Of a stretch of DNA of 64,000 nucleotides, positions 3,476-37,803 are shown in pieces. Both the position numbers and the translations under genes were made by a program. How positions within the stretch are numbered: the stretch's first letter is position 1; each line of letters opens with the position of its first letter. The DNA is from Octopus vulgaris (Eukaryota). The notes below the pieces were generated by a model that was given only the letters and a program-made list of their open reading frames with translations, had not been told where the DNA came from and ran no database searches. Where the stretch lies: contig OX597815.1 of assembly GCA_951406725.2 (NCBI GenBank), positions 142,352,001 to 142,416,000 of the forward strand, written 5' to 3'.

Positions 3476-3527
3476 TACACACACACACACACACACATAC
3501 ACACACACACACACAGAGATATATATA

Positions 3528-3736
3528 TTTACCTGTCTCAGTCATTTGACTGCAGTCACGCCGGAGCACCACCTTTAGTGGAACAAATCGATCCCAGAAA
3601 TTAGTATTTGTAAGCCTAGTACTTATTATAAAGGGTTTTTTGCCGAACCACAAAGTTACGGGGACTTGAAGACACCAACATCAGTTGTCAATCGATGGTG
3701 GGGAGGACAAACAGACCGCAAACATATATACGCACG

Positions 3737-3813
<77 letters not shown>

Positions 3814-5075
3814 TCCGTTTACCAAATCTACTCAGCACTTGAACGGCTCGAGGCTATAGTAAAAAAACTCTTGTCCAAGGTGACGTGCGATGGGACTGAA
3901 CCCGGAACCATGTGGTTGGGAAGCAAGCTTCTTTATTTCATGATATTGGCTATTACAGCCTTATATGTAGGGGACAGTACAAGGTGGAGACAAAAAAAAA
4001 ACGAATGGGAAGTATAAATTAAATATAATGAAAGATGAAATGAAACCGTTCGGCCCAATCTCCAAGCGATTTCATTGAACTTTTTAATACAACCTGTTAT
4101 TGTAACTTTTTTTTAAAAAACACTAGTTTATAATACCATTTTTAGCGACAGCTAATTTCCATCCGGCCGAAGGATGTTTATATTGCATTTCTTTAACATA
4201 TCAAAACAGCTTACTCGTTCCAGCATCATACTGGTGTCCATTTTCCTGACCCACCACCCAAAGTTAAAGTTTTCCTCATAGTCCTTCAATCTGAAATGGT
4301 ACAATCTGAAATGGTACACAGCAAACGTTCTCGGCACCCCTTCACTCCTGTTACATCCACCATTATCACTCTGTCCCTCGAATCTATCTCATTCTGAAGT
4401 TCTTCCTTTATTCCATTGTAGAGTATGACATATTTTTCATTTCCGAACGAGAGTGGGGAACTTTGGGGCTCCTGTGTGCTTGTGTTCGTCTTCATGTCAG
4501 GTGGGGTATGGCGAAGGCTAGTTTCTGCAGGTGTAGATTAGGTGTGGGTGGGTTTTGGGTGTGTGTGTGTGGGAGGTCGTCATTTACAACGTGTGACATT
4601 TTCCTCTTTCTTTTTTTTTCCCAGGTGTTTCCCATCCATTATTCACCCCCTCCTCCTCGACGCTGGCACTGGTCGTTGTCTGTGGTGCAGTTTCAATCTC
4701 CTTCCCCCTCTTGTACTTCTCTTCAGCCTCCACGGGTAGCGGAGGATTTCTCTTTTAAGTATTTTCTTGAATTTGCTTAATTCTTCCAGACTCACGTCTT
4801 GACTATTTTCTTTTGCCTCTTCAGCATAATTTATCGTCTCCATGGCCTCGTAAATTCTTTTTAGACTTTTCACCAATTCTTCCTCGGACGATATAAAGTC
4901 TCAAGAAGAACTCAAAACTTCGTAATTCATAACGCTCCTACGGTGCTCTCCAATTAAACAAGAGGGAATACGCCGCACACCACCGCTGCAAGACAGCCAA
5001 AAACACGCATTTCACACAAAGGCAACCGTCCAAACAATCGGAAGCAAGCTTCTTACCACACAGCCACGCCAGCGT
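3528..5075 (-). mobile_element. SINE family A copy split by an insertion in its tRNA head (SINE parts 3528-3933 and 5040-5075)
   Basis: GGAACCATGTGGTTGGGAAGCAAGCTTCTT stops at 3933 and resumes as GGAAGCAAGCTTCTTACCACACAGCCACGCC at 5040. Confidence 0.92.
3934..5039 (-). mobile_element. 1.1-kb RT-less retroelement with decayed ORF1-like coding remnants, inserted in a SINE A head
   Basis: Perfect 15-bp TSD GGAAGCAAGCTTCTT (3919-3933, 5040-5054). Minus ORF pieces 4643-4876, 4286-4495 and 4152-4337. PLSFGNEKYVILYNGIKEELQNEIDSRDRVIMVD resembles the ORF in the 20978-23043 element. Confidence 0.85.
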
Positions 5076-5084
5076 CTACGATAT

Positions 5085-5225
5085 TTTCGGGAATATTCAG
5101 ATGTAGCTGAATTTTTTTGCACTTTTGAGCAACGGTCGGGTTTTCTGTTTTCCTGAATGGCTAACTTATGACTTCCACGCTGCATTCACTTCAGTTTCAG
5201 CACACGATCTCCGATCAAAATACTT
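5085..5225 (+). repeat. Unclassified interspersed repeat, second copy at about 20630-20780
   Basis: Shared CTTCCACGCTGCA..GTTTCAGCACACGATCTC(C/A)GATCAAA in both places. Confidence 0.75.
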
Positions 5226-5699
5226 AATGTGTGTGTATGTGTGTATTTGTGTGCGTGCGTGTGTGTGTGTGTGTCTGTGTGCGCGCGCGATTGCGTGCGT
5301 GTCTGTGTGCGTGTGAACACTTTCATTAGTAGTAGAAGTATGAGAATACAATCGTAGAGAAAAGAAATCTAGTTTATATGACAGCACTCCGTACATTGAA
5401 TAGTAATGCCAGGAATATGTGTAATTCTAGAGGTTTCAGTCAAGAAAGCAGAATAAACTTGTGTGTCTTGCAATATTCATGAACTAGAAGAACAAATATC
5501 TTCCTTGGTGATAAATAGTCATTCGTCATACATTATTTATTGTCATTCTTAATTAGATACTTCCAAATACGCATATGTACACACGCATACACACGTACAT
5601 ACATTCATACATACGTGTGTGTATGTGTCTGTGTATATGTGTGCACGTGTGTGTCTGCGTGAACAAATGTGCATAACGTGTCCGCGCTTTAGATAGTAA

Positions 5700-6172
5700 A
5701 GTCTTACCTTGTATTACCAAAAGTTACTGGGAGTTCAATATAAAACCTTGGATAAATGTCTTCTACTACAACCTCGGGTTGACCGAAGTATTGTGAGTGG
5801 TTTTGGTAGGCGGAAATTGAAAGAAGCCCGTCGGATATGTATAATTCTATTTCTTATGTTACGTCCGTCCGTTAGTCGATATATCTTTTCTTTTTGATAT
5901 TCCCTTGTGTTTGTATATGTACATTCGTTTGCCTTGCTCAAGGGCTAAATGCCTTCAGCTTCAGCCCTTGGCTAAACTGGCGTTGAGTAGTATCGGAGAG
6001 GATTGGGTGAAACTACGTAGATATTCCAAACTCCGACTGAAGAAGCAATTGCCTGCGAATGTTCTGCGTATCTTATTTTGTCCTGTTTGCTGTTGTTCTG
6101 CTATCGATCTTTTCTCTTGTTATGTTTTAAAGATTTCCGTTTGTTGTGTTTTTACCACACACACACACACAC

Positions 6173-6241
<69 letters not shown>

Positions 6242-6475
6242 CAGGCACACAAATATCAAACATCTACGTCTGTATTTGTGTCTGTGTCCGTTCACCCCTA
6301 TCAGTATTGGTGTGTTTACATCCCATAAGATAACGGTTCGGCAAAATCGAACTATAGAATAAGTGCTACGCTTAAGAAATACGTCCTGGGATCAATTTGT
6401 TCGACTAAAACCCTTCACAGCGGTGTTCCAGCATGACCGCAGCCGAATGACTGAAATAACTAAAATAATAAAAAT
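5700..6475 (+). mobile_element. SINE family A copy (head 5700-5845, tail 6265-6475) with about 300 bp of another repeat inside its microsatellite middle
   Basis: TTGTGAGTGGTTTTGGTAGGCGGAAATTGAAAGAAGCCCGTCG, then tail CGGTGTTCCAGCATGACCGCAG. Confidence 0.8.
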
Positions 6476-7020
6476 GTACTAACAATACTAGTAATTATGA
6501 TGTCGTCAACAATATAGGAAAAGTAATATAAATAACATTTAATAAAATGTAGACGTAAGACGTAGTACCTTACAGGTTATATAAAAAGTATCTTAAAAGA
6601 TATGTAAAATATATGGGAACTGTAACAGCCTAGATTGAACTTATTGTCAGACGTTGAAATTATATATCTGGAACATTGTATTGTATTGGTTTACAACAAA
6701 GGACAGAAAATCAAGGAAGAAATGGAAGGTTTAGCATTTACTAAATGGCTTCCTGTATTACACAGAATTAAGAACAAAATCTTACCAAGCGTAGCTGTGT
6801 GGTAAGAAGCTTGATTCCCAACCATATGATTCCGGGTCCACCTTGGCAATTAGTTTCTACTATAGCTTCGGGCCGACCAAATCCTTGAGAGTTGATTTAG
6901 TAGACAGAAACTGAAAGACGCCCTCGAGTGACCCGTCTGTTTTTTTGTGTCGTCTCTTTGTGTGTTTTTGCGTTCTTTGTAATTTATATTTTATATTTAA
7001 TTTCTATACATACGTACACG

Positions 7021-7060
<40 letters not shown>

Positions 7061-7193
7061 AATGAGGTAATCAGCACACATATGTATATATATATATATA
7101 TATATATTAGAAAAAATGAGGTAATCAGATCAGATGGTTCATATTTGTAGATATTTATTTATATATTACATTTTTTACATATATATCATATCA

Positions 7194-7240
7194 TTCGGAT
7201 TAGCGCTTTCTCCCAATCTAGTGGGCTTTTCAAATCAAAT
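7194..7240 (-). ncRNA. Decayed Penelope-type minimal hammerhead ribozyme
   Basis: Minus: GAT-TTGAAAA-GCCCA-CTAGAT-TGGGA-GAAA-GCGC-TA|ATC. Topology and palindromic stem III fit, but the core CUGANGA is mutated. Confidence 0.5.
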
Positions 7241-7339
7241 AGATTGTGGGGAGTTTGAACATTTTATAGTTTCGTAGTAGTGGGTGAGGAGGAAGTGAGA
7301 CAGAGAAAACATGTGTGTATGTGTATGTGTGTGTGTGTG

Positions 7340-7391
<52 letters not shown>

Positions 7392-7394
7392 TTT

Positions 7395-7556
7395 ATATCT
7401 GAGAGTGAAGAAGTGTTATTTCCTTTGGTCAACTGGACCTCCTGTGGTTTTATAAGAACTTTGGCCATCCATTTTGATGTCACTGAGTGTGTTGTGCGTA
7501 GGTTGGCCTGACAAATGTCATTTGGGGTCACAGTTTCTATGATCATTCTGTGGAGG
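7395..7556 (-). mobile_element. Possible Penelope GIY-YIG C-terminal remnant
   Basis: Minus translation HLSGQPTHNTLSDIKMDG..QRK*HFFTLRY loosely resembles the PLE end motif HFNxPGHSLSDI..RKxxExFFI. It lies just upstream of the decayed hammerhead. Confidence 0.3.
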
Positions 7557-7580
7557 TGTGTGTGTGTGTGTCTCTGTGTG

Positions 7581-7624
<44 letters not shown>

Positions 7625-7700
7625 TGTGTGTTTGGAGAAGGGGAGAGAGACAAAAAGAGAAAAGGGAAAATAAAAATAATAATAATAAAAATATATAATA

Positions 7701-7753
<53 letters not shown>

Positions 7754-7799
7754 CATACACATACACATACACATATACATACAAACATAATAAATAATA

Positions 7800-7838
<39 letters not shown>

Positions 7839-8092
7839 CACATACACATACACATATACATACAAACATGTGTGTGTGTGCGTGTGTGTGTGAGTTTTCC
7901 CCACCATCGCTTGATAATCGGTCTGGTGTGTTTACGTCCCCATAACATGGAGGTTCCACAATTCTGTCACCTCGCCGCCTAGTGATAGCAAGATTTATTC
8001 TTATATTCTTTTATTCTTTTACTTGTTTCCGTCATTTGACTGCGGACATGCTGGAACACCGCCTTTAGTCGAAAACATCGACCACAGGACTA

Positions 8093-8181
8093 ATTCTTTG
8101 TAAGCCTTGTACTTATTCTAAAGGAGTTCTTTCGCTGAACTAAAGAACCCCTTTAGAATAAGTACAAGGCTTACAAAGAAT
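8093..8181. repeat. Hairpin, 40-bp arms with 1 mismatch and 9-nt loop, made of SINE A tail
   Basis: ATTCTTTGTAAGCCTTGTACTTATTCTAAAGGAGTTCTTT / AAAGAACCCCTTTAGAATAAGTACAAGGCTTACAAAGAAT. Confidence 0.95.
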
Positions 8182-8188
8182 ATATATG

Positions 8189-8258
<70 letters not shown>

Positions 8259-8333
8259 AATTAAAATGGAAGACAAGAGATGGAACGAACCGATGAATCG
8301 AAAACGAACCCGACGCGAGGCGCTGTCAGACAA

Positions 8334-8754
8334 TAATGTAATAATTAAAATATATGCATACATACAAACATATATGTACGTACCTACATGTATATATACA
8401 TGCATATATAAATAAATATACGTGAGTACAGGACACCACAACAGGACGTAGAAACGGGAAAAACATAAAATTATAACAAGAAAATAAGGAAAAGTCCCCG
8501 GTCATCAGCTGTCGCTAGTTAGACTCAAGCGTGTTTCGAAGAGCCTTCGAAACACGCTTGAGTCTAACTAGCGACAGCTGATGACCGGGGACTTTTCCTT
8601 ATTTTCTTGTTATAATTTTATGTTTTTCCCGTTTCTACGTCCTGTTGTGGTGTCCTGTACTCACGTATATTTATTTATATATGCATGTATATATACATGT
8701 AGATGTAGGTACATATATATATGTTTGTATGTATGCATATGTTTTAATTATTAC

Positions 8755-8758
<4 letters not shown>
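8334..8758. repeat. Long palindrome, arms about 210 bp, 3-nt spacer AGC (8542-8544)
   Basis: 8384-8541 is the exact reverse complement of 8545-8702. The outer about 50 bp is imperfect. Confidence 0.95.
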
Positions 8759-8803
<45 letters not shown>

Positions 8804-8830
8804 CTGTAAGTATGTATATATGTATGTATA

Positions 8831-9048
8831 TGATGGGGGTGCTGAACATTTCTCGCTGTAAGTATACGGCAAAAGACCTGGTTGAAGGCCCAAACTTCCG
8901 AATTCTGTAACAGGGCTTAGGAAAACTGAACGACTGCTGCAATAAGTGTGTGAATCTGAAAGGGGGACTCGTTGAATAAAATCGTAACTAATTGATCGTC
9001 CACATTTTCGTTTACCCACGCCTAATAACTTTTCTGCACTCCCTCATG
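8831..9048 (+). mobile_element. Mariner-derived MITE (internal deletion derivative)
   Basis: Imperfect TIRs GATGGGGGTGCTGAA / TTTCTGCACTCCCTCAT in TA context. The interior encodes a transposase C-terminus, GLGKLNDCCNKCVNLKGGLVE* (compare GIxxLxxRWxKCIxxxGDYVEK). Confidence 0.7.
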
Positions 9049-9059
9049 TATATCTATCA

Positions 9060-9139
<80 letters not shown>

Positions 9140-12100
9140 CTAGATGTGTGTGTGTGTGCACGCGCGCATGTGTGTGTGTGTGCACGCGCGCATGTGTGTG
9201 TGTGTAAGCATACAGTAAGTTACTGCCACTTATGTTGTAGGCTTAATTCAAATATTCTCAGTGCTGTTATAACCACAATTTCTTTGTAAACTTATTGACT
9301 CACTTATTCAGTATCGTTACATTTAAAATGTTATTTTTCTAGCCAAACTTGCATTAATCCACGGACACCAACTAAATCGGTGTAATTTAGAAGAATTATA
9401 TTGACGCAATGATTCTCTCTTCATCGTACACACAGACCAGCATAGAAATAAAATATCCAGTGAAGAAAATATTATCATTGAAAATATCTTTAACATGGAA
9501 TATTTTGCGTCATTTTAATTTCTGAGTGTCTTAGATAGAGAGATCTTCTAGAAAGTTGTTTTACTTTTTAGTAAGTAGCGATATCGGTAAGTATGTGAAT
9601 CAACATCTCGAACTGAGATTTAAAATTGCAATTTGTCTCGTATCTTTCTCATTCCCAAGTTGGTTCCCGTATTCATGATTTGTTATTTCTAAAGATTATT
9701 TTCATTGTATCTCTTGAATAACTGAACCATTATTGTAATATCATTACAATGATCGTGAAGGTTTTGTTTATACATCGTTTCAAATCTCACTGCCAACGCA
9801 AATATTTAAGATAAAATAAACAAATCGATATATTTTAATATCATATCCATTTTTTTCTTTTTTACTTTACAGTAGAATATGTGTACATGATTTACTGTAG
9901 AATGTATTTTTACAAAAAATTACACACACACAGGTATGTGTATTCTTGGTAGTAACTGTGTTAAACTATATTCAATACCACTTTCTATTATAATACTGCT
10001 AGATTGCTGAGCTAGAAATTCCTTCGGAAAAGAATACTTATCTTGCGCTAACAAATATTGGCTTCTAGGTTCTAATTTTACGTGTCAGTATATTCCTTGT
10101 CATTGGTAAAGAATATTTTGTAACGATATTCACTGTTTGTAATATAGTTTCGAAATTAATTTATAAATTTCTTGTAGTTAAAAAATTTAAGTACTTATAA
10201 ATTTCATATACTTTTATAAACTTAAATGTGTTACATGGTAATTAGAAAGATTATAGTATATTTCATGCATTTGTGCATAAATGAAATAACTAACGGTAGA
10301 GCGCTAAGTTGAGCAAACGTTTCTGAATTTAGATTTTGCACAAGCGCAGCTTATAATTTTGATACTCGGTGAGAATAAGTGTACAAAATGGTCGCTGAGT
10401 TTCGAAAATTCTAGGCTACGCCTGCATAATATCTAAATTTAGAAAACATTGCAGCACATCTCAATGACTGCTCGAAGAAAACTTGTTGAGGCAGCTGCCT
10501 TGAAATGTTTTCTAACATTTATAGTTGAATATACTTTTCCAAGTGCTCCCTAGAGCATCCTTCTCTCTCTTTTTATCTCTCCCATTTTCTTCCTCTCCTT
10601 ATCTATGTATGTCGCTTTTCTCTCTCTCTCTCATCTAGCAACTAGATAACGAAGATGATTTCGTTAAAGTGATATATCATATCATGCGAAGAAGCATTCT
10701 TATGGCAGTCTTTCAGTACATATCGAGTAATAGCACTCAAACACTAGATAACAAGTAGTTCTGACTTTTCAAACTTTCTGATCCATTTGTTGCTATTCTG
10801 TGGAGAAACAAAACCTGTGAAGTGTACTCTCCTAATAAATCTTCTTATACATTCATTTCTGCATTACAGTGGTTGGCACCAGCATCCCGTATTTTGCGAC
10901 ATTTACTTATGTGACTCGTGAAACTGTTCCTCAGATTTCTTCAATCTGTATAGATCGTGGATATTAGTGCTGCTTTAAGGCATGTTTATAGAAAGGTGTC
11001 GTCGATGTTAGCTTTGTATCTATTATGCTTATTCATATGTAACTAATTTCAAGAAGATATTTAAAACCTCAAGCTTACCTGATGCCAGTCTATGAGTTAA
11101 ATATTCCTAGGTATGCATTTACTGATATTTTTTTAATTTCTTTGTCTTTCACATAGAGCTGGACCGATTCTCTTCTGTCACTATGTAGACTTTACTTTTC
11201 AGTATGCGGCATTGTTTTCTAAAGATTTTTTTTTTCCGCTTAAAAACAATAAATATTTTTCAGGTTCTTTTGTTTCTCTTTATATATTGGTGTTACCAGC
11301 TGCTATTCGTAGATTCTTTTAGTGCCGTTTCCCATCTATATATATATATATATATTGAATTAATAATTACCTGTGACATATTAATCCTATACTCTCCTAC
11401 ATCACTTTATCACTAAGTGCATCCATACAGGGAGATTTACTTTCTTTCTTTATTTATCATTTCTTTTTCTTTCTTGTATTATTTTTACCACCATAATATG
11501 AAAATCGGAAAATTTCAGGCATTGATTTCTTAAGTATGAATTAAATATGAACGTATGGTTCAAAAAGATTTTAAAAATACGTTTTGATGTTTATGTGTTA
11601 TTGTTGTTATTTTGTTATTCGCATTGCGTGTTTTTTCTCCATGGACTACTTTGAAATATTTGTGACTATTAGGGTCAGGGTTAGGGTTCCTTAAAATTAA
11701 CCTCCTTAAAGTTAACATTTTGTATTTCAACTGGTGTCTTTAGTGGTTTATTTAGGTCTTTGTATTGTTCCACATACATACGATCTTTTTTCATAATTTA
11801 TGCCTTTCCTTATATAATATATCTATTGTTGATGCTTCTCTTATCACTTCCCGTGGAGCTTTCAAACTGACGATGTCTTGGGTATAGCTTACATGAGAGA
11901 ATGTATATTTCACTACGCGTATTGCGCAGAAAAACGAATGATAATTTTGCTGTGAGTGTTTGGTATAATGCGTGTATTATATAAGAGTGAGATGAAACCA
12001 ACTTAAATATAATTGATAATGAAGTAGTAATGAAATACAAGAGAGAAAGGCGACACTAATGTAAAAATCTCAAAGATCGTCATTTAGAAAATATTTTCAC

Positions 12101-12552
12101 ATACGATTTCCTTGGTGTTGCTACAAATGTGTGTTGAGAATCCATATCTTAAGTGAATAATTCCTGTTTACCTGAAACTACCAGGCGAAATAGTTAGGTT
12201 TTACTTATATTTCAAGAAATATACAAGATTGAGTTACCCCTTGAAAGAGCATTTTATTTAAAATTCGAAACTCCCAGTAGTAACACATATTTATATCACT
12301 ATCAAAATATATTTAACCAATTTCTTTCCAGAAAGGTTTGAGAATTATCATGGTAAAGTTGGATCACAATCTTTGCAAAGATGCTCTTCCACTTGTTCGA
12401 TTTGATTCCTGAATTAATGCAGTCTTTGTGCAGCATTCTATATAGACGAATACATTTAATGTTATCATCAGGTGCAATCAATGTGACACAGTGTGTGCCA
12501 ATCCTGGCTATGCCTTTTGGATTACAAGTAAAAATCCATTCAACGAGATTAT

Positions 12553-12696
12553 CTAGAGTTCCCATTCATTCAACTCCACTCGCAAGTCAGTCTGAAGTTC
12601 CGGAAAATGACGTGTGCTGGAAATGATAGGTAGCGAGATCCATCTGTGATCTTTGGGTTCCGATGCAAACTTCTTAAAAATTCGCCCATAATACAC
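12553..12696 (-). other. Candidate exon (possibly terminal), unidentified
   Basis: Acceptor ..ATAATTTATAG|GTG at 12697/12696 and higher GC than the flanks. Phase 0 gives VYYGRIFKKFASEPKDHRWISLPIISSTRHFPELQTDLRVELNEWEL*. No family recognised. Confidence 0.25.
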
Positions 12697-12747
12697 CTAT
12701 AAATTATTGCATAGAAATAATTAATTTTTAATGTGTGGTACATATAT

Positions 12748-12965
12748 GGCGGCGAGCTGTCAGAAACGTTAACACGCCGGGCAAAATGCTTGGAGGTATT
12801 TCGTCTGTCTTTATGTTCGGATTTCAATTTCCGCCGGGGTCGACTTTGCCTTTCATCCTTTCGGGGTCGATAAATTAAGTACCAGTTGCGTACTGGAGTC
12901 GATCTAACCGACTGGCCACTCCCTCAAACATTGCGGGTCTTGTGCCTTGAGTAGAAAAGAATTCA
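12748..12965 (+). mobile_element. SINE family B (tRNA-headed), short-tail variant, with TSD
   Basis: GGCGGCGAGCTGTCAGAAACGTTAACACGCCGGG..GTCGACTTTGCCTTTCATCCTTTCGGGGTCGATAAATTAAGTACCAG. TSD TGGTACATAT at 12736-12745 and 12966-12975. Confidence 0.92.
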
Positions 12966-15900
12966 TGGTACATATGTCCATTGAATTCCATGCTACATGA
13001 TCTAATATTTGTAGAATAATACATATGAGAGCGAAAAACTAATAGCTGACAGAGACTCTTATAATTGTTTCTAATTTGTATTTCACATCGAAATTAGTGT
13101 CATATTTATAATGACACCATTTATTCAAATAAAATCTGCTAATTATTTAACAGACCTATGAGAACTACTAATTTTGTAGATAATAATGTATTATCGAATA
13201 CTTCTACATAAAAAAAAGCATCGACCTGCAATTTTAAAAGGCATAATTCCGTAATATTTTATTCAATGTTGTATATATTTTAGGTTGAACATTTTGCAGC
13301 AACAGCTGAATAGTTACATGTCTATAGAAACCCAAACGAACCAATCAGTTTCACTATCAACCCGATTACTCATCATTACATATTTCAGGCCAGCTGCTGC
13401 AAAATTGCTAGGTATTCCTTCGTTTTAGTTTTCTTCCTTTCAATATATGCTACGTAACCGATTAAGCATAGATTTGATGTCGATCAATGAAGAAATGTCG
13501 GGGGAAAATTTCATATATGCAAGGTATCATTACCTCAAATGAAAACTGGAAGCCAGTAAATTTCAGTCCATTCATACATCGACTTCTGATGGAATGTCTT
13601 TGATATCTTATGTAATTACTTACAATTGTTTGCTACAGTCAGTGCTGATTGTAAATATATAGAAGCCTGTTATTCTACGAGAAAAAGTTGAAGATCAAAA
13701 GGGTAATTTTGACGAAGTGCAGTGCTAAACATTCCAAGCGAGGTGAATCTGTAATGGTTTATAAACAAAAGAATTACTTTTATGATAAATCAGGCGTATA
13801 AAGGCAAGCATGACAAACCTTAAAATATGTTCGCCTTTGTTCCAGTTTTCATTGGTTTACTATATTCTTCTAATATAAAAAGCTTCTGCATTTTACAGCG
13901 AAATGCGTTTCACATAATACACAAAGGAAGATTTACCTTCACATAAGAAGAGAAACCTTCTAGCTGTCGGATCAATATTTAGTGTTAAACAACTGACGAA
14001 ATTCAGATATATTCTATGATTGGTTTTATTCATTTCCTGACTCCCACGAAGTATTTATTTTTGTTTACACCATGACCGTTTTGGGTTCACTTCTCTTTTG
14101 AATCTGATTAACTTGCGTTCTTAAATTTCTCTTCAGAAGGATTAAAACCAACAATTCCTTTATCGCTTACAGCACCAGTTTAAAAACGTATAATGGTAAA
14201 AATGTAATTTATTAGGTTTAACCTGTTATTAGGATATCTAAATTATAACCAATGCGTCCGTCAAGATTTATGCAATAAATGTTAGTATTCGTTATAATAG
14301 CGGTAATCGTATCAGTAGTACTAGTAATTGTAATAGCTGCAGCAGCACCAGTAGCGATAGCCCCAGCAGCTACAGGGAGAGTAAATTTGTTCGAAGCAAT
14401 GTCGTATTTATCGAGATGTAGTCTATTAACAGTGAGCATTCACATATGAGTAGTTCTTTTGCTTAGTCGTAGGTCAGCCCTATTAAAGTAATCTTGCGTT
14501 CATAATAGTGCCACCTTGATCATTTCCACGATTGTCGATGTAAGACTACGCTTTGCAATGAACCCTTTATTGTGTAAGAATGGTAAGTTGTGATTGGAGC
14601 AAATTTATTGCTTTCTAGCATAAAAAGCGACTAGATAGATACACTCTCCTTGGTTTGTAAGATAGGTAGTTTCCTCCTTTATATTGTCGTTTATGATGAT
14701 ATTTAGATTCATATGAATCCTGTTCGATGCATTCCAGAGACAAACATCCCAATTGTTCTCATGCATTATGTAACATGCGTTCTATTAAATGCCATTTCTT
14801 TACTGTGTGAATTGATGGCGATGAAACACGTATTTCTGACAGATACAGCGAGCATATAGAGACTCTCTTTTCTTTAGCTCGTAGTGGTGACAGGAGTATT
14901 TTGAGGACAATTCAGGGAAAGATGTCTAAATATGCAGCATTTAGATTTATAAATTATAGGTATTATCATACCGATAACACTGATGATTTCGTGAACATTC
15001 ATATTGTGCATAACGTTAATGTTATACACAATGTCCACGCACACACGCACATATATACATGAATGCGTACATACATCGTATATATATTGTAGCAGCAACA
15101 CATGATAAGGTTATGATGGAATACAGAAAGCGGGATTATATAACAGAAGGAATGAAACAGAAAAGGAAATCAGAATTAATTTCTTAATCTTTGCAATTAT
15201 ACGTTGCAACATCTATGACATTTATGTAAATAATTACGCCTGCTTAGCGATACTGTTACTTCGGGAACCTCAATTTCATAGCTGAAGTGGCCTTTAATGG
15301 CGAGTAATTAACATTTCAATAATTTAACATCAAGCGTTAATTGATTATAACTGATTGAAAGTCATTACACATTCATAAATTCTTGAATTCATTAATGCAT
15401 CTTTTCATGAAAACTATAATACATTTCCTATTATTAACAAGTATTTCAGTAAAATAAATTGCTAAACATTTCAGGAATTAATCTAACGAATAAGAAATAT
15501 ATTTTCATATTGAATTTCCTTCTTTTGGTTATATGCCTGTGTCTATGTGTGTCTCTGAGTATGTAATACGTGCGTTTGTGTGTTTAATTACATTTAATTC
15601 GTGACGAATATCCTTGATAGAGGTTTCAACTGAAAGTGAGCGCAAACATGCCAATCAATGGTTCACTACACCCTTCCATTTAATTCCATGTATTTCAATA
15701 GTGCCTCGAATAGATTTACAGTCAATACATGCAATTAATGGAGAGCCTTTATAATGTGTAAATTTAGGATGCAGCTACGTTTCATGTCAGCACATAATGA
15801 GATACATTTGTATGTATCAAATCTGTTATTTAATTTAGATTAACTTCCGATGAAACATAGGAAGAAAAATACTGAAATAAAAAAGACATAATAATCATTA

Positions 15901-16789
15901 GCTGAAGCAATAAAACATTCATCTTAAAACGTGACGTGAAATTAATTTTGAGTAAAATATTTAAACGTACTTCTTTTTTGCTAATTTGAAAGCAATATTT
16001 AAAACTAGATTAATATATTTTCATTGACATACGATCGTCGCATTACCTACAGCAATATGGACGTGATATACCCTATACATGTCATATGATATTCTTAATG
16101 ACACAAGCACAACAGCTGTAACTGGCACATATTGCAATAATAATGTATTTGGAGATCGTACAGGCATTTTTGAATTTGGACAGTTCAGTATTAAAGGAAG
16201 ATACGATAAAACGGCTTACAAAATGGAATATACGTTATTTAGTGTCCAAAATTTGCCCGAACACCCCTATAAAGACACCCATGCCTAATTATTGATAATT
16301 ATGCTGATGTCTTTTAGCGTTAGTATATGCAAATTATCACAATATTCCATCAGCAAATTGATTAACGAGTTTTCAATTAAACATATTTATGTGCATTACA
16401 ACGGTAGTTTGTTCTTGTAGATTTATTTGCACATTACTTGTCATGTTAATCGAAATACTAGTCTAGGTTATGTCATGGGCGCCCTCCATATGTTTTGAGA
16501 CCACCTATAGGGAAAGTTCCGCTCATAAATCCAAGCATATGCGGAAAAAAAGAATTGCAGATCATAAATAACTTGCTGTCAATACAATTTCGATAAAATT
16601 TTTTATCGCGAGGGGCATCAATTTTTAACAGGAATTATATTTTTTTTAAATCGCTTTGAAACGGGTACTCAAAATCTGCAGTAAAGAATTCCCTTTGTTA
16701 GTTGACACTGACATTTTTAAAGCCATTTGTACAAAATAAAACTTTGATCAAATTAATGCTATCATATATGAGATTTTTCGGCGCATGTA

Positions 16790-17232
16790 TGCGCAAGCGT
16801 GTCTTCGAGATACTTACTTCGGATTCACACATTTCCGGGTTCAGTCCTACTGCGTAGTACTTTGGTCAAGTATCTTCTAGCTACTAGGATAGCCTTAGGC
16901 TGACCAAACCTTTCACAGTGTATTTTTTCGACAGAATCAGAAAATACTCTGTCGTATATATCTATATGTGTGTGTATGTGAATGCGTGTGTAAGTGCATC
17001 TTTGTGTCTACGTTTGTCCCCCACCGCCTGTTCAAAACAGGTATTGGTTTGTTTACGTCCCAGTAACATAGCGGTTCAGCAAAACCGATCGATAGAATAA
17101 ATACCAAATTTTTTAAAAAATGTGATCGATTCATTCGACTAAATCTTCTTTAAGCCACTAAGCTGCGGCCATGTTGGGACATGGCCGCAGCTTAGTGACT
17201 AAAACGGGTAAAGGAAGGTAAAAGATAAAAAA
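16790..17232 (+). mobile_element. SINE family A, diverged full-length copy
   Basis: TTCCGGGTTCAGTCCTACTGCGT head, GTTTACGTCCCAGTAAC body, CATGGCCGCAG tail. Confidence 0.85.
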
Positions 17233-17319
17233 GTATACCTTCTCAAAAGAAATTCAGCAGGTTTTATGGTTATGATATTCCCAAGATTCTGTGTCTTCCT
17301 AAAATCTGTACTTTTGTAT

Positions 17320-17682
17320 CTCTCTTTCTCTTTCTCTTTTACTTGTTTGTCATTTGACTGCGGCCATGCTGGAGCACCGCCTTTTGTCGAGCAAATCGAC
17401 TCCGGGACTTATTCTTTGTAAGTCCAGTACTTATTCTATCGTACTCTTTTGCCAAACCGCTAAGTGATGGGGACGTAAACACACCAGCGTCAGTTGTCAA
17501 GCAATGCTAGGGGGACAAACACAGACACACAAACATATACACACACATACGTATATATATACATATATACGACAGGCTTCTTTCAGTTTCCGTCTAGCAA
17601 AGACACTTGCCCAAGATGCCACACAGTGGGACTGAACCCAGAACCATGTGGTTGGTAAGCAAGCTACTTACCACACAGCCAA
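17320..17682 (-). mobile_element. SINE family A, young copy with internal deletion and an EMPTY target site
   Basis: Uninterrupted GGTTGGTAAGCAAGCTACTTACCACACAGCC at 17650-17680. Confidence 0.92.
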
Positions 17683-17833
17683 ACCTGGTGGTGGTTTCAA
17701 TACTTTTGTTAATAAAAAAATATATCACTGAATCCTGTGTTCTTGATAACATTCTTTTTTCACACCAAACTCCAAATTGATGAAAATTCCCTTTAGTATT
17801 TAGGACTGCATCTATACGTACTGCTGTGCTTAC

Positions 17834-17952
17834 CTGAAAATATCGACAGCATTTGCTCGACCAGAACACTGACCACATAAGACTTTACAAATGTGAAAGC
17901 GTCTGCAAATGGATATATACTCACCAATACTGTGTCTTGTACTGAATAACGA
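17834..17952 (-). other. Candidate 119-nt internal exon, unidentified
   Basis: Acceptor TTTTTTTGTCTCTGTAATTATTCAG| and consensus donor CAG|GTAAGC. Two frames are open (RYSVQDTVLVSIYPFADAFTFVKSYVVSVLVEQMLSIFS or SLFSTRHSIGEYISICRRFHICKVLCGQCSGRANAVDIF). Confidence 0.35.
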
Positions 17953-18390
17953 CTGAATAATTACAGAGACAAAAAAAATGTAAGACAAGTATCCAAATGA
18001 AAAGAAAACAATTATTAGAACTGTACAACAGCTAAAAAATTCCCACCGCTGTAAAGAATCACATATAACAAAAGATGCCTGCAGACAAGAGAAAACAAAT
18101 TTTATAAAAGAAACAAAAAAATGTACTCGCTAGAAATTAAGAACTAGCGAAGCAATTGTGTTCTTACATGTTTATAGCTACATACACAAGTAATTTGTCG
18201 TATGTTTATACAACCAGTCGTAGCTACACGCACACTGTCGATAGTTTGTTTGAAATTAAGAGAATAAACTGTACGACAGTTGATGCAAATTGACTATGAT
18301 GGTTCTACAACACCTAGTTTAAATGAGATAAAAACATAGTCATTACAATTTACTAAGTGCTAAGTGCAATAACTTCAGGATGTATTTATA

Positions 18391-19648
18391 TTGGGTTGGT
18401 AAGGTAGTAATTTCGTTTTTCGAAAATAGATAGATTTAAGATTTTTTTGAATGACTTTTCTTAATGTTATATATTTTTCCTTTTGACATTTGATAGCCGT
18501 TACTTTTAGCTTACTTTAGAAGCAAATTGCGCGTAATTTTGTGTACAGCTGATAGTTCAGTGTCAGTTTTAACATGGAGTGCAAAAACTAACATTTTCGC
18601 CATATTTTAATTTTTTATATTTCCGTAAATGTAAGAAAGCTGCTGAAGCTCCCAAAGAGATATGTGAGGTTTATGGTGATAATTGCTTAATAGAACGCAC
18701 AAGTAAAAATGTTTTAAAATTCCATTCTGCAAATTGTGCATTCAAAGATGATCAAAGTTCTAGTCAACCTACTGAAGCTGATGATGTCCAAATGAAAGCC
18801 ATAATTGAATCTGATTGTCATATAACTGTGCGAAAGATTGCAGAGAAATTAAATGTTTCACATATAACAATTGAAAATCACTTAAAATGTTATGGTCCCC
18901 TTACGAAGCTCGATATTTGTGTTCCACTTCAATTGAAAGAGTTTCACGTGACACAACGAATCACTATATTGCGATATGCATCGCAAACGCAATGATATCG
19001 ACCATTTTCTGAAAGGAATTACCACTGGTGTTGAAAAATGGATTGTCTACAATAACATCAATAGAAAACCATCATGGTCCAAGCGTAATGAACCAGCACA
19101 AGCTCCAGCGAAAGCTGAATTGCATAAAAAAAAGTTATGCTATAAATTTGGGGAGGGGGGATTACGAAGATGTTTTGTATTTTGAACTGCTTCCAACGGC
19201 CCAAAAGATCTATTCAGATGTTTGCTTCCAACAACTAACGAAATTGAAGGAAGCAATCAAGTAAAAACAGTCAGAATTGGCAAATCGTCAAGGAATCGTG
19301 TTCCACTATGACAACGCAACGCTAGACCACACACGTCTTTGCTTACTCGTGAAAAAATTATTTGAGCTAAGTTGGGAGGTGAGTTACCCGCACCATATAG
19401 CCCTAATCTTGGACCTTCAGATTACCATTTATTTCGAAGTTCTTTGCAAGGTAAAACCTTCAATAATGATAACGACCTGAAATCGCACTTGCTTTAGTTT
19501 TGGGCTGATTAGGATCAGAATCATGAAGTTGCCGGGAAAATGGCAAAAAATCATCGAAGAAAATGGAATATTTATAATTGATTTAAGATCATTCTTTGTA
19601 CGAAAAAATATGACTTATTTCAAACTAATTACTTTCTTGCCAACTCAA
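18391..19648 (+). mobile_element. Full-length mariner (DD34D, Hsmar1/cecropia-like TIR), transposase pseudogene at about 18574-19585
   Basis: TA-flanked TIRs TTGGGTTGGTAAGGTAGTAATT / AATTACTTTCTTGCCAACTCAA. Motifs ITVRKIAEKLNVSH (HTH), ICVPLQL (WVPHEL), ITTGVEKWIVYNN, HYDNA, YSPNLGPSDYHLFRS. Several frameshifts. Confidence 0.95.
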
Positions 19649-19884
19649 TACACTACTGGAGTAAAGTACGTTCGATTGCATACACACATGTATGCATGTG
19701 TCTGTGTGTCTATACACACACACATATGTGTATACATTTGCAGGCATGCATACATACATGTATGTATATTTATACATATGTGTATGTATTTGTGTGCATG
19801 TTTGTGGGGGTGCCTGTTGATCCATTCCCTAAATTACAATATGGAAGCAGAAGACCACTGAGAAAGCACCATTTGGATTTTGTT

Positions 19885-22800
19885 GCTCTTTTACATGTTT
19901 CAGCCATTTGACTGCGACCATGCTGGAGCACCGCCTTTAGTCGAGCAAACCCACCCCAGGACTTATTCTTTGTAAGCCTAGTACTTAGTATATCGGTTTC
20001 TTTTGCCGAACCACTAAGTTACGCGGACGCAAACACACCACCATCGGTTGTCAAGCGATGTTGGGGGGACAACCACGCACACACATGCATACGAGCATGG
20101 ATACATACATACGCACATGCGTACGTATGTACATACACACATACATACACACATACATACATACATACATACATACATACATACATACATACATACATAC
20201 ATACGCACATACATACATACATACGCACAATAGTAAAACAATAGAGATAAAGATCTGATAATAGATTTTAGGGTATAGTTTCGGGAGTAAGCATCGTAAA
20301 TCACTTTCTAGCTTCGGCCGTAGGAAGTTGAAATTTGATAGCTTTGTGATGAGTGGTCACTCTACATCCATCCATCGCTACAGGTTTATAGATTTATGTT
20401 TTATAGAGTGTGTGTGCGTGCATATACACACACATACATATATACATACATACATACATACATACATACATACATACATGCATACACAGGCGTATGTACG
20501 TACATGCATACGTACATACATACACACATGTATGCATACATACACACATACATACGTACATATATATGACGAACTAACTGTTACTTTCTTAGATGCAGCA
20601 CGGACTTTGTCAGTGAACAGGTCGCGGATTTTAGCGACGAAAATATTTTGACAAATTAAACTTAAATGTTGAAGTGAATCGAACGGCTTTTGTGTGTTTC
20701 TTAAATGGCTTATAAACACCTTCCACGCTGCAATTGTTTTCGTTTCAGCACACGATCTCAGATCAAATTACTTGCTATGCGAGTACATCTCCGTAATATA
20801 TATATGTATATATATATATATATATACATATATACGACGGGCGTCTTTCAGTTTTCGACTACCAAATCCACTCACAAGTTTTTGGTCGGCCTGAGGCTAT
20901 AGTAGAAGACACTTGCCCAAGTTTTCACGCAGTGGGAATGAACCCAGGACACCATGTGGTTGGTAAGCAAGCTACTTTATTTCATTTTATTTGCCATAGA
21001 GGCAGTATACAGCGTAGCTGCGGGCTGGACAAGAGATTAATGAGGAAAATGATAATAATACAAGATGATAAAGTTGAGAGAAAGAGCCCGCCAATTTCCT
21101 GCTTCTCTAAAACATTGTTCGTTACAAACAACATATATAGAGGTATTAAACCTCATACAAATATATACAAAAAGTGGGACTAGAAGTCCATCACAAAGGA
21201 AACAAATTTTATACATATGGAGGCGATAATCCTCTTACATTACTCCCACAATTAACTCTTCTGTGGCCTGCAGGTATTCCCGCAACCACCAATCGGAGCC
21301 AAAGTAAAGTAATCTGTATTCCTCCTTTGGGAAGGATGTTGACCTGTAGAAAAATATTTTCTTTCCAGTACCAGTGCTGCCACCTGCGAAGGCCACTCTG
21401 GAATGTCAATAAAAATGGTGTCCATCAGAACCCAACTATCAAGGTTATATTCCACATATTCCTCAATCGCACCTCCCTTGCAATAGAGGAATACAAATTC
21501 CTCATCACTTTCAATGAGAGGGAACTCAACTACCTCGCTCAGTGGCACACATTCCATCGACAAGGTTTCCTTCTTCTCCCCGCTCGGTGCCACACATCCC
21601 ACCGAAGGGAATTCGGGACATGCCGTCGCCGGCAATGTCCCGTTTTCCATTTTCTTCTTTCTTTTCCCCTTTGTGACGGAAGGGTGGAGTTCCTCCGACA
21701 TGTCTGGAGGTCCCTCCTCCCCTCCCGCCATCTCAGGGTCCATCGGTGGGCAATCATTTATGTCCGCCTTCCTTCGCTTAGTACCTTTTCTCGAGGAGGT
21801 TACTTCCTCCTCGACTTTCTCACTCTCTCCCTCAAATGAAGGAGCAAGAGGCTCCGTTGAGGGAACAGTGGGTTAACAGTCATCAATCAACTGTTCCAGG
21901 ACCTTCACCTGGTCTCGGCAACAGTTCTTCTTCATGTGCCCTGATTCCAGGCACAGGTGATACTTGGGGGTAGGGGGTCTCTCAATGATCACCGGGTGCC
22001 TAGAATCGTCAATTGTCAAGAAATCTGGTCAAACCAGATCTTCGGCCGATTGGACCCATGGGGTCAAAATAGCTTTTGACCCTACCCGATCGACCACAGG
22101 CAGTATTTTTACATTCAAGAGCCTGGTGGGGCCTCGACAGATAGAAGCTTCTATCCATTCAGCTACAATAGCGGGTGGCAGCCCACACACCCAGGCTCTT
22201 GTCAATTTACGCACACCATAAGTGGGGAGGAACAAGATCTTCCTCCCCTCTATAGGTTGGCTCGTAAATTTCTGAGCCTCCATAGGGGTGTGCACCCCTA
22301 CGTATGAACCTATAAGTTGGCTCAAATCCTGCCAACTCTTCTTCAATTTCACTCTGAGGGAATACACAGATGGTATCCCGGTCTCTCATCATAGTTTTTC
22401 TCATTATAGTTTTTAGCCACTCCTTGCGGGCCACAATTCACCACTCCAAGGCTTTCATATATTTGGTTGCCATTAATAGAATAAACTATAAAAGTTCACA
22501 ACAAAATAAAAAATGTTCAAATAAAAGTCTCTAATGCAAACACAAAAAAGAGCAGAAAGACAGTCAAGAGAAAAAGAACGAACGCAGGCAGTTCAAATGA
22601 CAACAAAAGTCAACTCAGGGAATCGTTTGTAGCACAGTTAAAAATCCCTTACGGCGCAAAAATAACTGCAAAAAATTCCTGATTATACACCAAATGGTAA
22701 AATACTCCAAATGGTAAAATTCTGGTTGTATTCCAATTGGTAAAAATGTACGAAGTGCACACAGTCACATAAAATCATATATCTTCAGAGGGGATACGCC

Positions 22801-23080
22801 CCCTGAAAAACCAAAATTCTCTCAACACAGTGAGTCTTTTTGCACGATCACAGGCAGGCGAATAACCCAATGGAGACCTTTGCTCGTCAAAAGTTATTAA
22901 TTACGAACCAACGGACTCCACTAAGCTCCTTAAAAGAAAAAATAAACGCCTTACCTGTAGTCGTGCTTCAGTTTTTCAATATTTTTACGTAGAACGACGT
23001 GACTTTGGAGCGTCTAAACACGCGAACTCTTCAGTTGTGAAGAAAGCAAGCTACTTACCACACAGTCACTCCCGCGCCTA
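19885..23080 (-). mobile_element. SINE family A copy (tail 19885-20075, mid/head 20835-20977, 5' end 23044-23080) split by an insertion in its tRNA head
   Basis: ACCATGTGGTTGGTAAGCAAGCTACTT ends at 20977 and resumes as AAGCAAGCTACTTACCACACAGTCACTCCCGCGCC at 23044. Confidence 0.88.
20978..23043 (-). mobile_element. 2.07-kb RT-less retroelement with a disrupted ORF1/gag-like gene (about 22470-21200), inserted in a SINE A head
   Basis: Perfect 13-bp TSD AAGCAAGCTACTT (20965-20977, 23044-23056). RKLTRAWVCGLPPAIVAEWI (RRM-like), PVIIERPPTPKYHLCLESGHMKKNC (degenerate CCHC knuckle, about 21915-21995), basic KGKRKKK, then a C-terminal domain. No RT or endonuclease motifs. Confidence 0.88.
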
Positions 23081-24939: not shown

Positions 24940-25766
24940 TATTTATTTCTTTATTGCCCACATGAGACTAAGTATAGAGGGGACAAAGTCACATAAAAGG
25001 ATTACGCCGATTACATCGACACCAGTGCATAACTGAAAGGCAAATTCGGCCTCAGGGGAATTTGAACTCAGAACGTAATGGCAAACGAAATACCTAGTTC
25101 TTTACTAGCCATAAGGGGCTAAACACAGAGAGGACAAACAAGAACAGACAAACGGATAAATCGATTATATCGACCCCAGTGCGTAACTGGTACTTATTTA
25201 ATCGACCCCGAAAGGATGAAAGGCAAAGTCGACCTCACGGAATTTGAACTCAAAACGTAACGGCAGACGAAATACCGCTAAGAATTTCAACCGGCGTGCT
25301 AACTATTCTGCCAGCTCGCCGCCTTTAAACGTAAAGACAAACGAAATACCTATTTCTTTGAGCACACAAGGGGCTAAACACAGAGAGGACAAACAAGGAC
25401 AGACAAACGGATTAAGTCGATTATATCGACCCCAGTGCGTAACTGGTACTTATTTAATCGACCCCGAAAAGATGAAGGGGCAAAGTCGACCTCGACTGAA
25501 TTTGAACTCAGAAGGTAGCGGCAGATGAAATACCTATTTCTTTACAACACACAAGGGGCTAAACACAGAGAGGACAAACAGGGACAGACAAACAGATTAA
25601 GACGATTATATCGACCCCAGTGCGTAACTGGTACTTATTTAATCGATTCCGAAAGGATGAAAGACAAAGTTGACTTCGGCGGAATTTGAACTCAGAACGG
25701 AGCGGCAGGCGAAATACTGCTAAGCATTTCGCCCGGCGTGTTAACGTTTCTGCCAGCTCGGCGCCC
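24940..25766 (-). mobile_element. Nested/tandem array of four SINE family B copies
   Basis: Repeated AAGGGGCTAAACACAGAGAGGACAAAC..TCGACCCCAGTGCGTAACTGGTACTTA..GAATTTGAACTCA units, joined at GAAATACCTA near 25095, 25349 and 25533. Confidence 0.93.
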
Positions 25767-29257: not shown

Positions 29258-30590
29258 CAGCGAGCAAGAAAAGAGAGCGATAATTATTATTTCGCAATTG
29301 GTTTTGTAAATACGGTTAACCATTTTGTAAAATCTACTTTTGTGCAATTATCTTAATAAGGATTAATAACACTAATACAAGTCTTGTCCAAATGTCTCAT
29401 GTCAAAAATAAGTAAACGATCAAACTAGAAATTGCTTCAATTAACTCATTACCGTAATAATGATAGGAAGAAATGTAAATATGAACTTAAATCAGTTAGT
29501 ATGATGTTCGTAGAGCTCTGTTGGAGATCACCTCTGCACATTGATTGCCACAGGATATAACAGGTTTCCTGCACATATCAGTTGTTATTTTCTTCTATTC
29601 CTCTTCTAATATCTCCCTAAAAATCACCATAGCAGTTGGTGCCCTTTCTCTTGCTTTGTTTCGAAATATCTTCCAAAGCTTTTCAATCAGATTTGTACTA
29701 GACACATCATTACTTAAAAATGCACGGTTGATTCGGAAGTGCTCGTAATGATGGGGTCACATTTTGTTTCATCAAATTCAAATAAATATTAGCATTAATA
29801 GTCTCTTTAATCTGCACTAGAGGACCAACTCCTTCAGAAGAAATCATTTCCTACAACATGACGCTTCCTTCTCTAAACTTGGCAGATTTCTTCAGGCACT
29901 TGGATTTTACCCAACCCCCTATGAAGCGCCTAACATACTGTCTATCATCTGAACCTACTAAATTGAATTTGATTTCATTGCTAAAATGAACTTTTGACCA
30001 ATTTCCATCCCTCCAGTTCACATGAGCTTCTGCAAATGAAAGTCTTTCCAATTTGTTCTTCTTGCTTATGGAAAGTTTCATTGCCGGGGAACAAATCTTT
30101 AATGCAAATTCCTTCAGACGACGAGACATAGTAAAGCGGCTCATTTCCGTACCATTATTTACTTTAATTTTCTTAGGAATTCTAGCCGCACTCACGAAAG
30201 GATCCATCAATACGTATCGCTTCATGGCTCGATCATTTCGCATGTTGGTTTTGCTTGGTCCTCCAATCGCCTTTTTCGGTTCAAAACCTTTACTTTCTTC
30301 ATAGAGCTTAAGAACACGTGAAACTACAATCTTATAACTCCTTATGTCTCGTGAAATAGCCGACAGAGTCATTCGTGAAACTTTCATCCTAACAATTTCT
30401 TTTCGGAGGTCGGGAGTAGACTTGGCGTGAAGTGTCATGTTCGGAAGTTAGCACAATACTGAGACGGTTGTAACGGTGAGATTGCAAATGTAAACAGCGT
30501 TTGAAATTTCCAGAAATTTCTGAAGGATTCTAATCTTTCTCATCTTTTTCACATGATTTGGACGAAAGTAGCTTTTTTTGTCCGCTACTG
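29258..30590 (-). mobile_element. Tc1-like (DD34E) transposon, degenerate; transposase remnant 30438 to about 29500
   Basis: ORF 29851-30438: paired-type HTH, GGPSKT (GRPRKT), WSKVHFSNEIKFNLVGSDDRQYVRR. Downstream NLIEKLWK (NPIENLW) and QCAEVISNR. TA-flanked TIR CAGTAGCGGACAAAA at 30590. The left end at 29258 is tentative. Confidence 0.9.
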
Positions 30591-36300: not shown

Positions 36301-36537
36301 ATACCTATTTCTTTACTACCCACAAGGGGCTAAACACAGAGAGGTCTAACAAGAACAGACAAACGGATTAAGTCGATTACATCGACCCCAGTGCGTAACT
36401 GGTACTTAATTTATCGACTCCGAAAGCATGAAAGACAAAGTCGACCTCGGCGGAATTTGAACTTAGTAAATAACGGCAGACGAAATACGGCTACGCATTT
36501 CGCCCGGCGTGCTAACGTTTCTACCAGCTCGCCACCT
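36301..36537 (-). mobile_element. SINE family B, full-length long-tail copy with TSD
   Basis: Close match to the 25-kb units. TSD ATTGGAATCTATACC (36291-36305) / ATTCGAAGCTATACC (36538-36552). Confidence 0.92.
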
Positions 36538-37044
36538 ATTCGAAGCTATACCACCCACGTTACAGATTAAATTTGATTCTAAAACATAAACAGCAGAAAT
36601 CCGTACACACCTATGTTAGTAAAACATTAATATGTACTTTTATATTCCGTTACTTGTATCACTAAACCATTTTACGTTGTAAAATTTTCGAATAAATGAG
36701 GAATACTGAAACAACACGCATCAGTCACGTGTAAGCTAGAAGCAAATGTCCTCAATACAATTAGGGGTATAACTGCATTTTCAATATTTTCTATTTGTTA
36801 AATATAACAACTTTTCATTTCGTCACCAGCTGATGGAGGCCGAGAAGAAAAGTACACAAGCTGCGCTTGTAGATCTTCAATGTTATTTTCAACTTACAGG
36901 ATTTTTCGAACTATACAGTCATGTATACTTAACCACTTTTGATTTATTTCTTTTTTAAGTCTGTAAAGTGATCATTTCGAAAACTATTTTCTTTGTTATA
37001 TACAACATTGTTCAGCTATTATAAATTGGTAGGCATCATCCACT

Positions 37045-37803
<759 letters not shown>

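Follow-up and report, generated by a model that had tools for sequence, protein, structure and literature searches.

Within a 64,000-nucleotide stretch of the Octopus vulgaris genome (assembly GCA_951406725.2, contig OX597815.1, positions 142,352,001 to 142,416,000; hereafter the window, numbered from its first letter), two retroelement inserts split the heads of two copies of a short interspersed nuclear element (SINE), here termed SINE A. These inserts, and the lineage of long interspersed nuclear elements (LINEs) to which they belong, are the subject of this analysis. Both inserts lie on the minus strand in SINE sense, have a common 3′ junction with the terminal letters ATGAAATA, and interrupt the head at G(G/A)CTGTGTGGT^AAG(A/T)AGCTTGCTT, as the preliminary description of this DNA had proposed. 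Insert 1 (3934..5039) is a 1.1-kb, internally deleted copy of a family of approximately 1.7 kb that codes for the first open reading frame only (ORF1-only family i1), and approximately 600 bp, including the zinc knuckle, are absent near position 4748. Its 3′ target repeat (3919..3933), in a SINE of the AAGAAG type, matches the 5′ target repeat (5040..5054) over 15 exact bases, and identical letters start most i1 family copies. The host SINE comprises the head to the insertion point (5055..5076) and the rest, namely the B-box-like part, body, and tail (3527..3918, approximate ends), while a 3′ hairpin with a 4-bp stem, a 5-nt loop, and a G-C closing variant lies at 3948..3960. Insert 2 (20978..23041, previously bounded at 20978-23043) is a near full-length copy of a second ORF1-only family, i2, with a broken ORF1 and a decayed zinc knuckle (21252..22449; 50% identity to the ORF of locus L094, E 1e-59). 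Its target repeats, in a SINE of the AAGTAG/TACC type, are located at 20963..20977 (3′) and 23042..23056 (5′; 15 nt with one mismatch, 13 of them exact, 20965-20977/23044-23056), its host SINE at 23057..23078 (head to the insertion point) and 20817..20962 (rest, 3′-truncated at a microsatellite), and its 3′ hairpin, with a T-A closing variant, at 20992..21004; all of these features are on the minus strand. Empty target sites were identified in a third SINE copy (17657..17680, minus strand), in an AAGAAG-type copy (6793..6818, plus strand), and in a diverged copy (37770..37796, minus strand), at the three places indicated earlier.

The repeats of 15 and 13 bp had been taken to indicate a variable second nick. 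The exact lengths stand, but the sequence in the i2 copies L002, L006, L013, and L016 is ...GCTTA-CTTCAC, as against ...GCTTT-CTTCAC in the window copy; the 13-nt repeat is therefore a 15-nt repeat with a substitution, and the variable second nick is rejected for the window pair in favor of a point change, though truncated copies elsewhere do show variation. The two inserts had also been described as not alignable, which holds for their DNA, with a best match of only E 0.007 in BLASTN and TBLASTX comparisons. The implied lack of relationship does not hold, as the i1 and i2 families are homologous at the protein level; the window copies are linked via better-kept family members and not directly, and on these comparisons they are distant relatives rather than unrelated elements.

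Our genome-wide searches covered one genome of 2.8 Gb. The exact pattern of an occupied junction was found 344 times, as opposed to 0 for the reversed control, and exact empty sites amounted to 53,775. Among the latter, the AAGAAG type accounted for 3,233 (6.0%) and the AAGTAG-AACC type for 48.9%, counts that under-represent the older SINE subtype owing to the exact match. The target of the TACC subtype, GGTAAG-N7-CTTACC, is an inverted repeat. The insertion point lies just 3′ of what we take to be the A-box-like motif of the D arm, the A-box-like and B-box-like motifs of the SINE head having been assigned by eye against the consensus.

Walking upstream from 20 junctions led to two full-length 5.45-kb LINEs at the same site. 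Pfam searches assigned to their ORF1 a zf-CCHC domain (E 2e-5) and no match to Transposase_22, and to their ORF2 an N-terminal Exo_endo_phos domain (apurinic/apyrimidinic endonuclease, APE), an RVT_1 domain (reverse transcriptase, RT), and a C-terminal CCHC motif (zf-RVT). The best PDB match of ORF2 was human L1 ORF2p (residues 6-870, E 1e-66, versus E 1e-19 for R2). Among 40 candidates scored in a DNA search with ORF2, at least 36 further copies were 98-99% identical over all of ORF2, and all 30 young copies chosen for fetching by their ORF2 similarity terminate at the site, one of them stacked in a tandem array. Both ORFs are open in L115, L116, and L119; contigs of four runs cover the LINE, and such contigs show neither transcription nor starts. 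Exact 3′ ends of the lineage numbered 113, and of the 100 listed, 96 begin with AAGTAG, with 94 of these continuing as the target (counted by eye); the exceptions include one AAGAAG-type end of an i2-like element, one one-base shift, and one reverse orientation in a SINE. Among older autonomous copies (76-89% in APE), 15 loci were fetched, 7 without an ORF2 match in the fetched DNA and 2 lacking a 3′ end; the other six all have their 3′ end at the site. In the RT tree, the SINE-site RTs form a clade (100/99) adjoined by a sister lineage at 60-67%, with an Argonauta protein outside both, and the two visible 3′ ends of the sister lineage lie elsewhere (five loci, three without a visible 3′ end). 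Among named homologues, the one most similar to the LINE protein comes from Argonauta hians (60%). The octopod lineage has as its sister a large clade at approximately 40% identity (P0003-P0051). The preliminary description had predicted that an autonomous, site-specific LINE would exist elsewhere in the genome, and the young and intact LINE identified here is the likely source of the enzymes that cut the target and copy the inserts. SINE A was also considered as a passenger of this LINE and rejected, as the tails are not shared (best E 0.02).

Relatives of inserts 1 and 2 were retrieved by DNA search, with the best 40 candidates scored per insert and the junction tallies taken from the resulting listing. 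Among the best candidates scored, i1 was represented by 28 distinct loci, 27 with a 3′ end, of which 23 are at the site (21 in a SINE and two stacked on the target repeat of another element). The i2 family (approximately 2.05 kb) showed its 3′ end in 24 of 30 loci, with 19 at the site, two SINE joins with a junction deletion, and three elsewhere. A third ORF1-only family of 2.2 kb, younger and 88-93% alike, matched by its ORF1, is at the site in 14/14 5′ junctions and 12/12 visible 3′ junctions. Compared with the autonomous ORF1, i1 family copies show 34-41% identity and i2-type copies approximately 25% (25%, E 3e-16, for the L094 ORF), while the window copy of insert 1 gave no TBLASTN match to it. 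In TBLASTN searches with the autonomous ORF2, none of the i1 and i2 elements matched, the matches at L005, L007, L037, L055, and L058 being flanks or neighbors, and no match appeared in the 14 third-family loci. With ORF1 present, ORF2 absent in full-length copies, and a 3′ end common with the autonomous LINE, the inserts are ORF1-only LINEs of the HAL1 (half-L1) kind. In all likelihood, they are ORF1-only members of an L1/Tx1-group lineage that inserts at one nucleotide of the SINE head, copied there by target-primed reverse transcription (TPRT) with the ORF2 protein of the autonomous members.

A common site could also be a matter of ancestry, if one or a few SINE-insert composites had been amplified as units by hitch-hiking or segmental duplication. 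Local duplicates do exist (L013/L016/L020/L022 on C13 and L050/L054 on C29) and add some copies, the 5′ repeats are constant within families, and a three-copy array could stem from recombination. This array (L114 and L161, C9:2664540-2680900) consists of three head-to-tail 5.45-kb LINE copies in one SINE, with a one-base 5′-repeat variant common to all. However, among 29 young copies (406 pairs), the last 150 nt of the element have a mean pairwise identity of 0.993, versus 0.933 for the adjoining SINEs, whose divergence is thus seven to ten times that of the elements, and this refutes a composite for the young family. Moreover, 5′-truncated copies of 71, 96, 110, 155, 341, 350, 736, 747, and 1651 nt are joined again to a SINE head and flanked by repeats of 0-16 nt, L173 has duplicated letters that are specific to its own host SINE, many families with unalignable bodies use the one site, and different families are stacked at the regenerated site (L127, L171, L197/L230, L242, and L037). 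The truncated copies, the SINE divergence, and the stacking lead us to reject hitch-hiking, and amplified composites are a highly improbable explanation; the insertions are independent events, as had been proposed, and no single ancestral composite was found to underlie them. The hallmarks of TPRT, namely a fixed 3′ end, 5′ truncation, and target-site duplication, are all present. For the 5′ junctions, 13 of 20 further young copies ran beyond the fetched stretch, and L126 was without a resolved 5′ stretch.

All families carry a hairpin with a 4-bp stem and a 5-nt loop, 10-13 nt before the terminal (G/A)AAATA. Across 49 ends, 92% of cells are paired and 26 double changes occur, with 0 of 500 shuffles as good and slid controls reaching at most 60%. 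No poly-A tail was seen at the element ends, and an AATAAA motif, completed by target letters, spans the junction. At the opposite end, the 5′ repeat of full-length copies follows the family and not the host, and in hosts that are not of the AACC type, the 5′ copy is still (G/T)CTAAC in 6/6 young autonomous and 3/4 third-family cases. Hence, the long target-site duplication of full-length copies is often partly carried by the element.

In the mechanism that we propose, the ORF2 protein would recognize RNAs via the 3′ hairpin and the terminal GAAATA, acting in cis as well as in trans on ORF1-only RNAs with the common 3′ hairpin. Its APE domain would nick the bottom strand at GGT^AAG(T/A)AG, with the second strand cut up to approximately 16 nt downstream. 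Full-length RNAs would start inside a target copy, and their 5′ end could anneal to the overhang, often overwriting it, such that insertion would regenerate the target and make stacking possible. Mobilization of the ORF1-only elements in trans by the ORF2 of the lineage and a specificity of the endonuclease for the site are both predicted.

The families are also matched to subfamilies of their target. In the junction-selected tally, i1 lies at AAGAAG or AAGGAG in 16 of 17 cases, i2-like elements at AAGTAG in 29 of 34, and autonomous-type elements at AAGTAG in 52 of 55. Mean pairwise identity of the host SINEs rises from 0.77 for i1 to 0.88 for i2 and 0.93 for the young family, which fits a succession of LINE families in time, and the lineage may have followed successive SINE waves from the AAGAAG type through AAGTAG-TACC to AAGTAG-AACC.

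These matches bear on what selects the site. Instead of a precise endonuclease, RNA-DNA pairing might be the main selector, with read-through transcripts that carry the SINE target annealing at a loosely placed nick, so that the endonuclease need not be very specific. In support of this possibility, which we consider doubtful as the main determinant, AATAAA spans the junction and a poly-A tail is absent; in the 3′-end listing, positions +1 to +6 are nearly invariant, versus variable positions +7 to +11; the off-SINE copy L165 is located at AAGTAGCTT, where the upstream GGT is lacking; the 5′ end of each family carries the same SINE subtype that the family is matched to; and the young family has no AAGAAG site in approximately 96, where 6% would be expected. 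A co-transcribed target that aids specificity has likewise been noted for R2, according to the accessible part of PMC4494074. Nevertheless, single-nucleotide precision is kept across lineages with 25% ORF1 identity, and SINEs altered at +7 to +14 serve as hosts and retain their changes. Furthermore, L162 (C3:28525692), a 28-nt element remnant, was inserted in reverse orientation at a pseudo-symmetric site of the SINE head, GGT^AAGCAAGCT, with a 14-nt repeat. A site set by the endonuclease and not by RNA-DNA pairing is presumed; read-through pairing, the main rival, agrees with the data and may operate together with the enzyme.

The ancestral target might instead have been a tRNA gene or another multicopy RNA gene, with the SINE a bystander that has a similar head. 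The site just after the A-box-like D-arm motif would fit such an origin, as would the use of another motif, AAGCAGTTCACTG, by L046 and L048. Yet the flanks of the inspected copies continue into the SINE body and tail, ARAGORN called no tRNA gene in the window or three loci, and the SINE head had no tRNA match in Rfam. Tx1 families do target RNA genes (PMC4494074, as far as its accessible text goes), but we consider this origin unlikely, and it bears on the past of the lineage and not on present use of the SINE. The two divergent i1 relatives L046 and L048 end at AAGCAGTTCACTG / AAGCAGTTCACTGTG, a different common motif, one of them in a tandem array, which possibly represents a further target specificity.

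Several points weigh against an ORF1-only and autonomous lineage confined to the SINE head and sharing one ORF2 protein. Off-site loci include four of the 27 of i1, which are its most divergent copies and of which two are at the other common motif, and three of the 24 of i2. Among the 100 listed 3′ ends, one has a SINE head upstream with a broken continuation and two lie outside SINEs, and because the 3′-end pattern hides copies with an A at +15, the tally of off-site copies falls short by roughly a third. In the searched genome, no ORF1-only family equaled the 99% autonomous family in youth, the best reaching 93%, and as the ORF1s of the ORF1-only families are no more than 25-41% like that of the young autonomous family, the direct partner of i1 and i2 would have been an older subfamily. 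The hairpin rows are related, so that their covariation is inflated, and with a stem of just 4 bp they support but do not prove recognition by ORF2p. The match to SINE subfamilies may in large part be explained by timing alone. Lastly, membership of the LINE in Tx1 is probable rather than settled, both trees being without named Tx1 or L1 rows and the homologues unnamed.

With its APE and RT domains, its C-terminal CCHC motif, and the hallmarks of TPRT, the autonomous LINE classifies by sequence within the L1/Tx1 group. A zinc-knuckle ORF1 in place of Transposase_22 is consistent with Tx1 in non-mammalian animals (PMC5203782, accessible part), and we therefore file the LINE in the L1/Tx1 group, probably as Tx1. 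HAL1 in the strict sense belongs to the L1 clade proper, and here the zinc-knuckle ORF1 points to Tx1 in a tree without named references. Non-autonomous LINE derivatives with only an ORF1 and a 3′ end are likewise known as HAL1, HeT-A, and Ag-Sponge (available parts of PMC5753468 and PMC5786205), whereas the octopus ORF1-only families, of which there are at least three, derive from a Tx1-like lineage and have kept site specificity. Kojima regards as target specific a family with more than 20% of its flanks in one sequence type, a share far exceeded here (30/30 young, 23/27 i1, and 19/24 i2 copies); copies lying mostly at unrelated sites, which would have spoken against the earlier proposal, were not what we found.

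Tx1 families described by Kojima in 2015 target piggyBac, Mariner, Harbinger, and LTR (long terminal repeat) elements, U2, U5, 5S, satellites, and microsatellites, and can have SINEU passengers (PMC4494074, to which the following comparisons refer within its accessible text). Most similar to the octopus system is Tx1-Mar with SINEU in Mariner-N4_AMi of crocodilians, in which a LINE and non-autonomous passengers have a common target in an abundant transposon, tandem copies sandwich a target-site duplication (16 nt), and truncated copies exclude hitch-hiking. In contrast, the octopus target is one nucleotide of a SINE head, used in one orientation by approximately 80-100% of copies; the octopus passengers code for ORF1, whereas SINEU passengers are SINEs headed by snRNA (small nuclear RNA); and the octopus lineage includes a 99%-identical family with open ORFs, as opposed to Tx1-Mar copies that are 85-87% from the consensus. 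Tx1L in Tx1D, Keno (U2), Kibi/Koshi (microsatellites), Tx1-9_AMi (Harbinger), and Tx1-8_Crp/Tx1-4_AMi (LTR elements) are also APE-type LINEs with endonuclease-linked target choice in multicopy DNA, but none of the targets named in that text is a tRNA-type SINE, nor does it describe succession along target subfamilies. L1-Tx1 elements are known in coleoids (PMC8967140, accessible part), and recently active L1-Tx1 of approximately 5.4 kb mean length is listed for Octopus vulgaris, with 13 families and 421 insertions (PMC13282606), although the words target, nested, TSD, and specific are absent from its main text. The term Tx1 is absent from PMC9115989, and the accessible parts of PMC8869645 and PMC4824008 added nothing on a SINE target. 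A description of a SINE-targeting Tx1 or of this octopus system was not found in a literature search that did not extend to Repbase, Dfam, subscription papers, or the target list in Fig. 3 of PMC4494074. Targeting of other transposons by Tx1 with non-autonomous passengers is thus already published (PMC4494074), and the SINE head as a landing pad is likely new.

Offering over 50,000 exact sites that are empty, the SINE would serve the lineage as a dispersed, self-renewing safe harbor. A more far-reaching and tentative interpretation is that the LINE lineage co-evolves with the SINE head as an obligate landing pad, each wave of LINEs and ORF1-only satellites being tuned to the contemporary SINE subfamily via the target copy at its RNA ends. 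Insertions would split the A box from the B box and kill the SINE promoter in a parasite-on-parasite race, and a second SINE, which stacks into copies of itself, would owe its tail to the sister lineage. If this were true, no comparably precise SINE-targeting LINE would be on record, and the intact copies make the interpretation testable. How LINE endonucleases gain or shift targets is an open question, usually studied on ribosomal DNA or telomere targets, which are nearly constant. The octopus target, by contrast, is a SINE that evolves fast and has dated subfamilies, and the presence of specific and non-specific sister branches and of open-ORF copies in one genome makes the roles of the endonuclease, the hairpin, and the carried target separable by experiment. 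The system further accounts for nested structures that would be misread in octopus repeat annotation and provides filled/empty markers, and, with 1,133 amino acids, its LINE is a compact site-specific APE retrotransposon that extends the range of those studied for targeted gene insertion.

The second SINE is present in the window at 36306-36540 and in a tandem array at approximately 24944-25700, both on the minus strand, and contains a segment resembling the 3′ end of the LINE (25/30 nt, E 2e-5). Its 3′ end reads hairpin-AATAAAGAAATA, as in the sister LINE lineage. The segment has 86,237 exact matches in the genome, most of which precede the SINE's own body, in 184-bp units, and some its own head, at a point immediately past the A-box-like motif; one copy was found at the SINE A site (L052). 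The second SINE may be one that targets itself and is mobilized by the sister lineage, or else a composite that was multiplied as a whole. Elsewhere in the window, 18573-19861, 29851-30447, and 53861-54726 contain what we take, by eye and from characteristic motifs, to be broken Tc1/mariner-like transposase frames.

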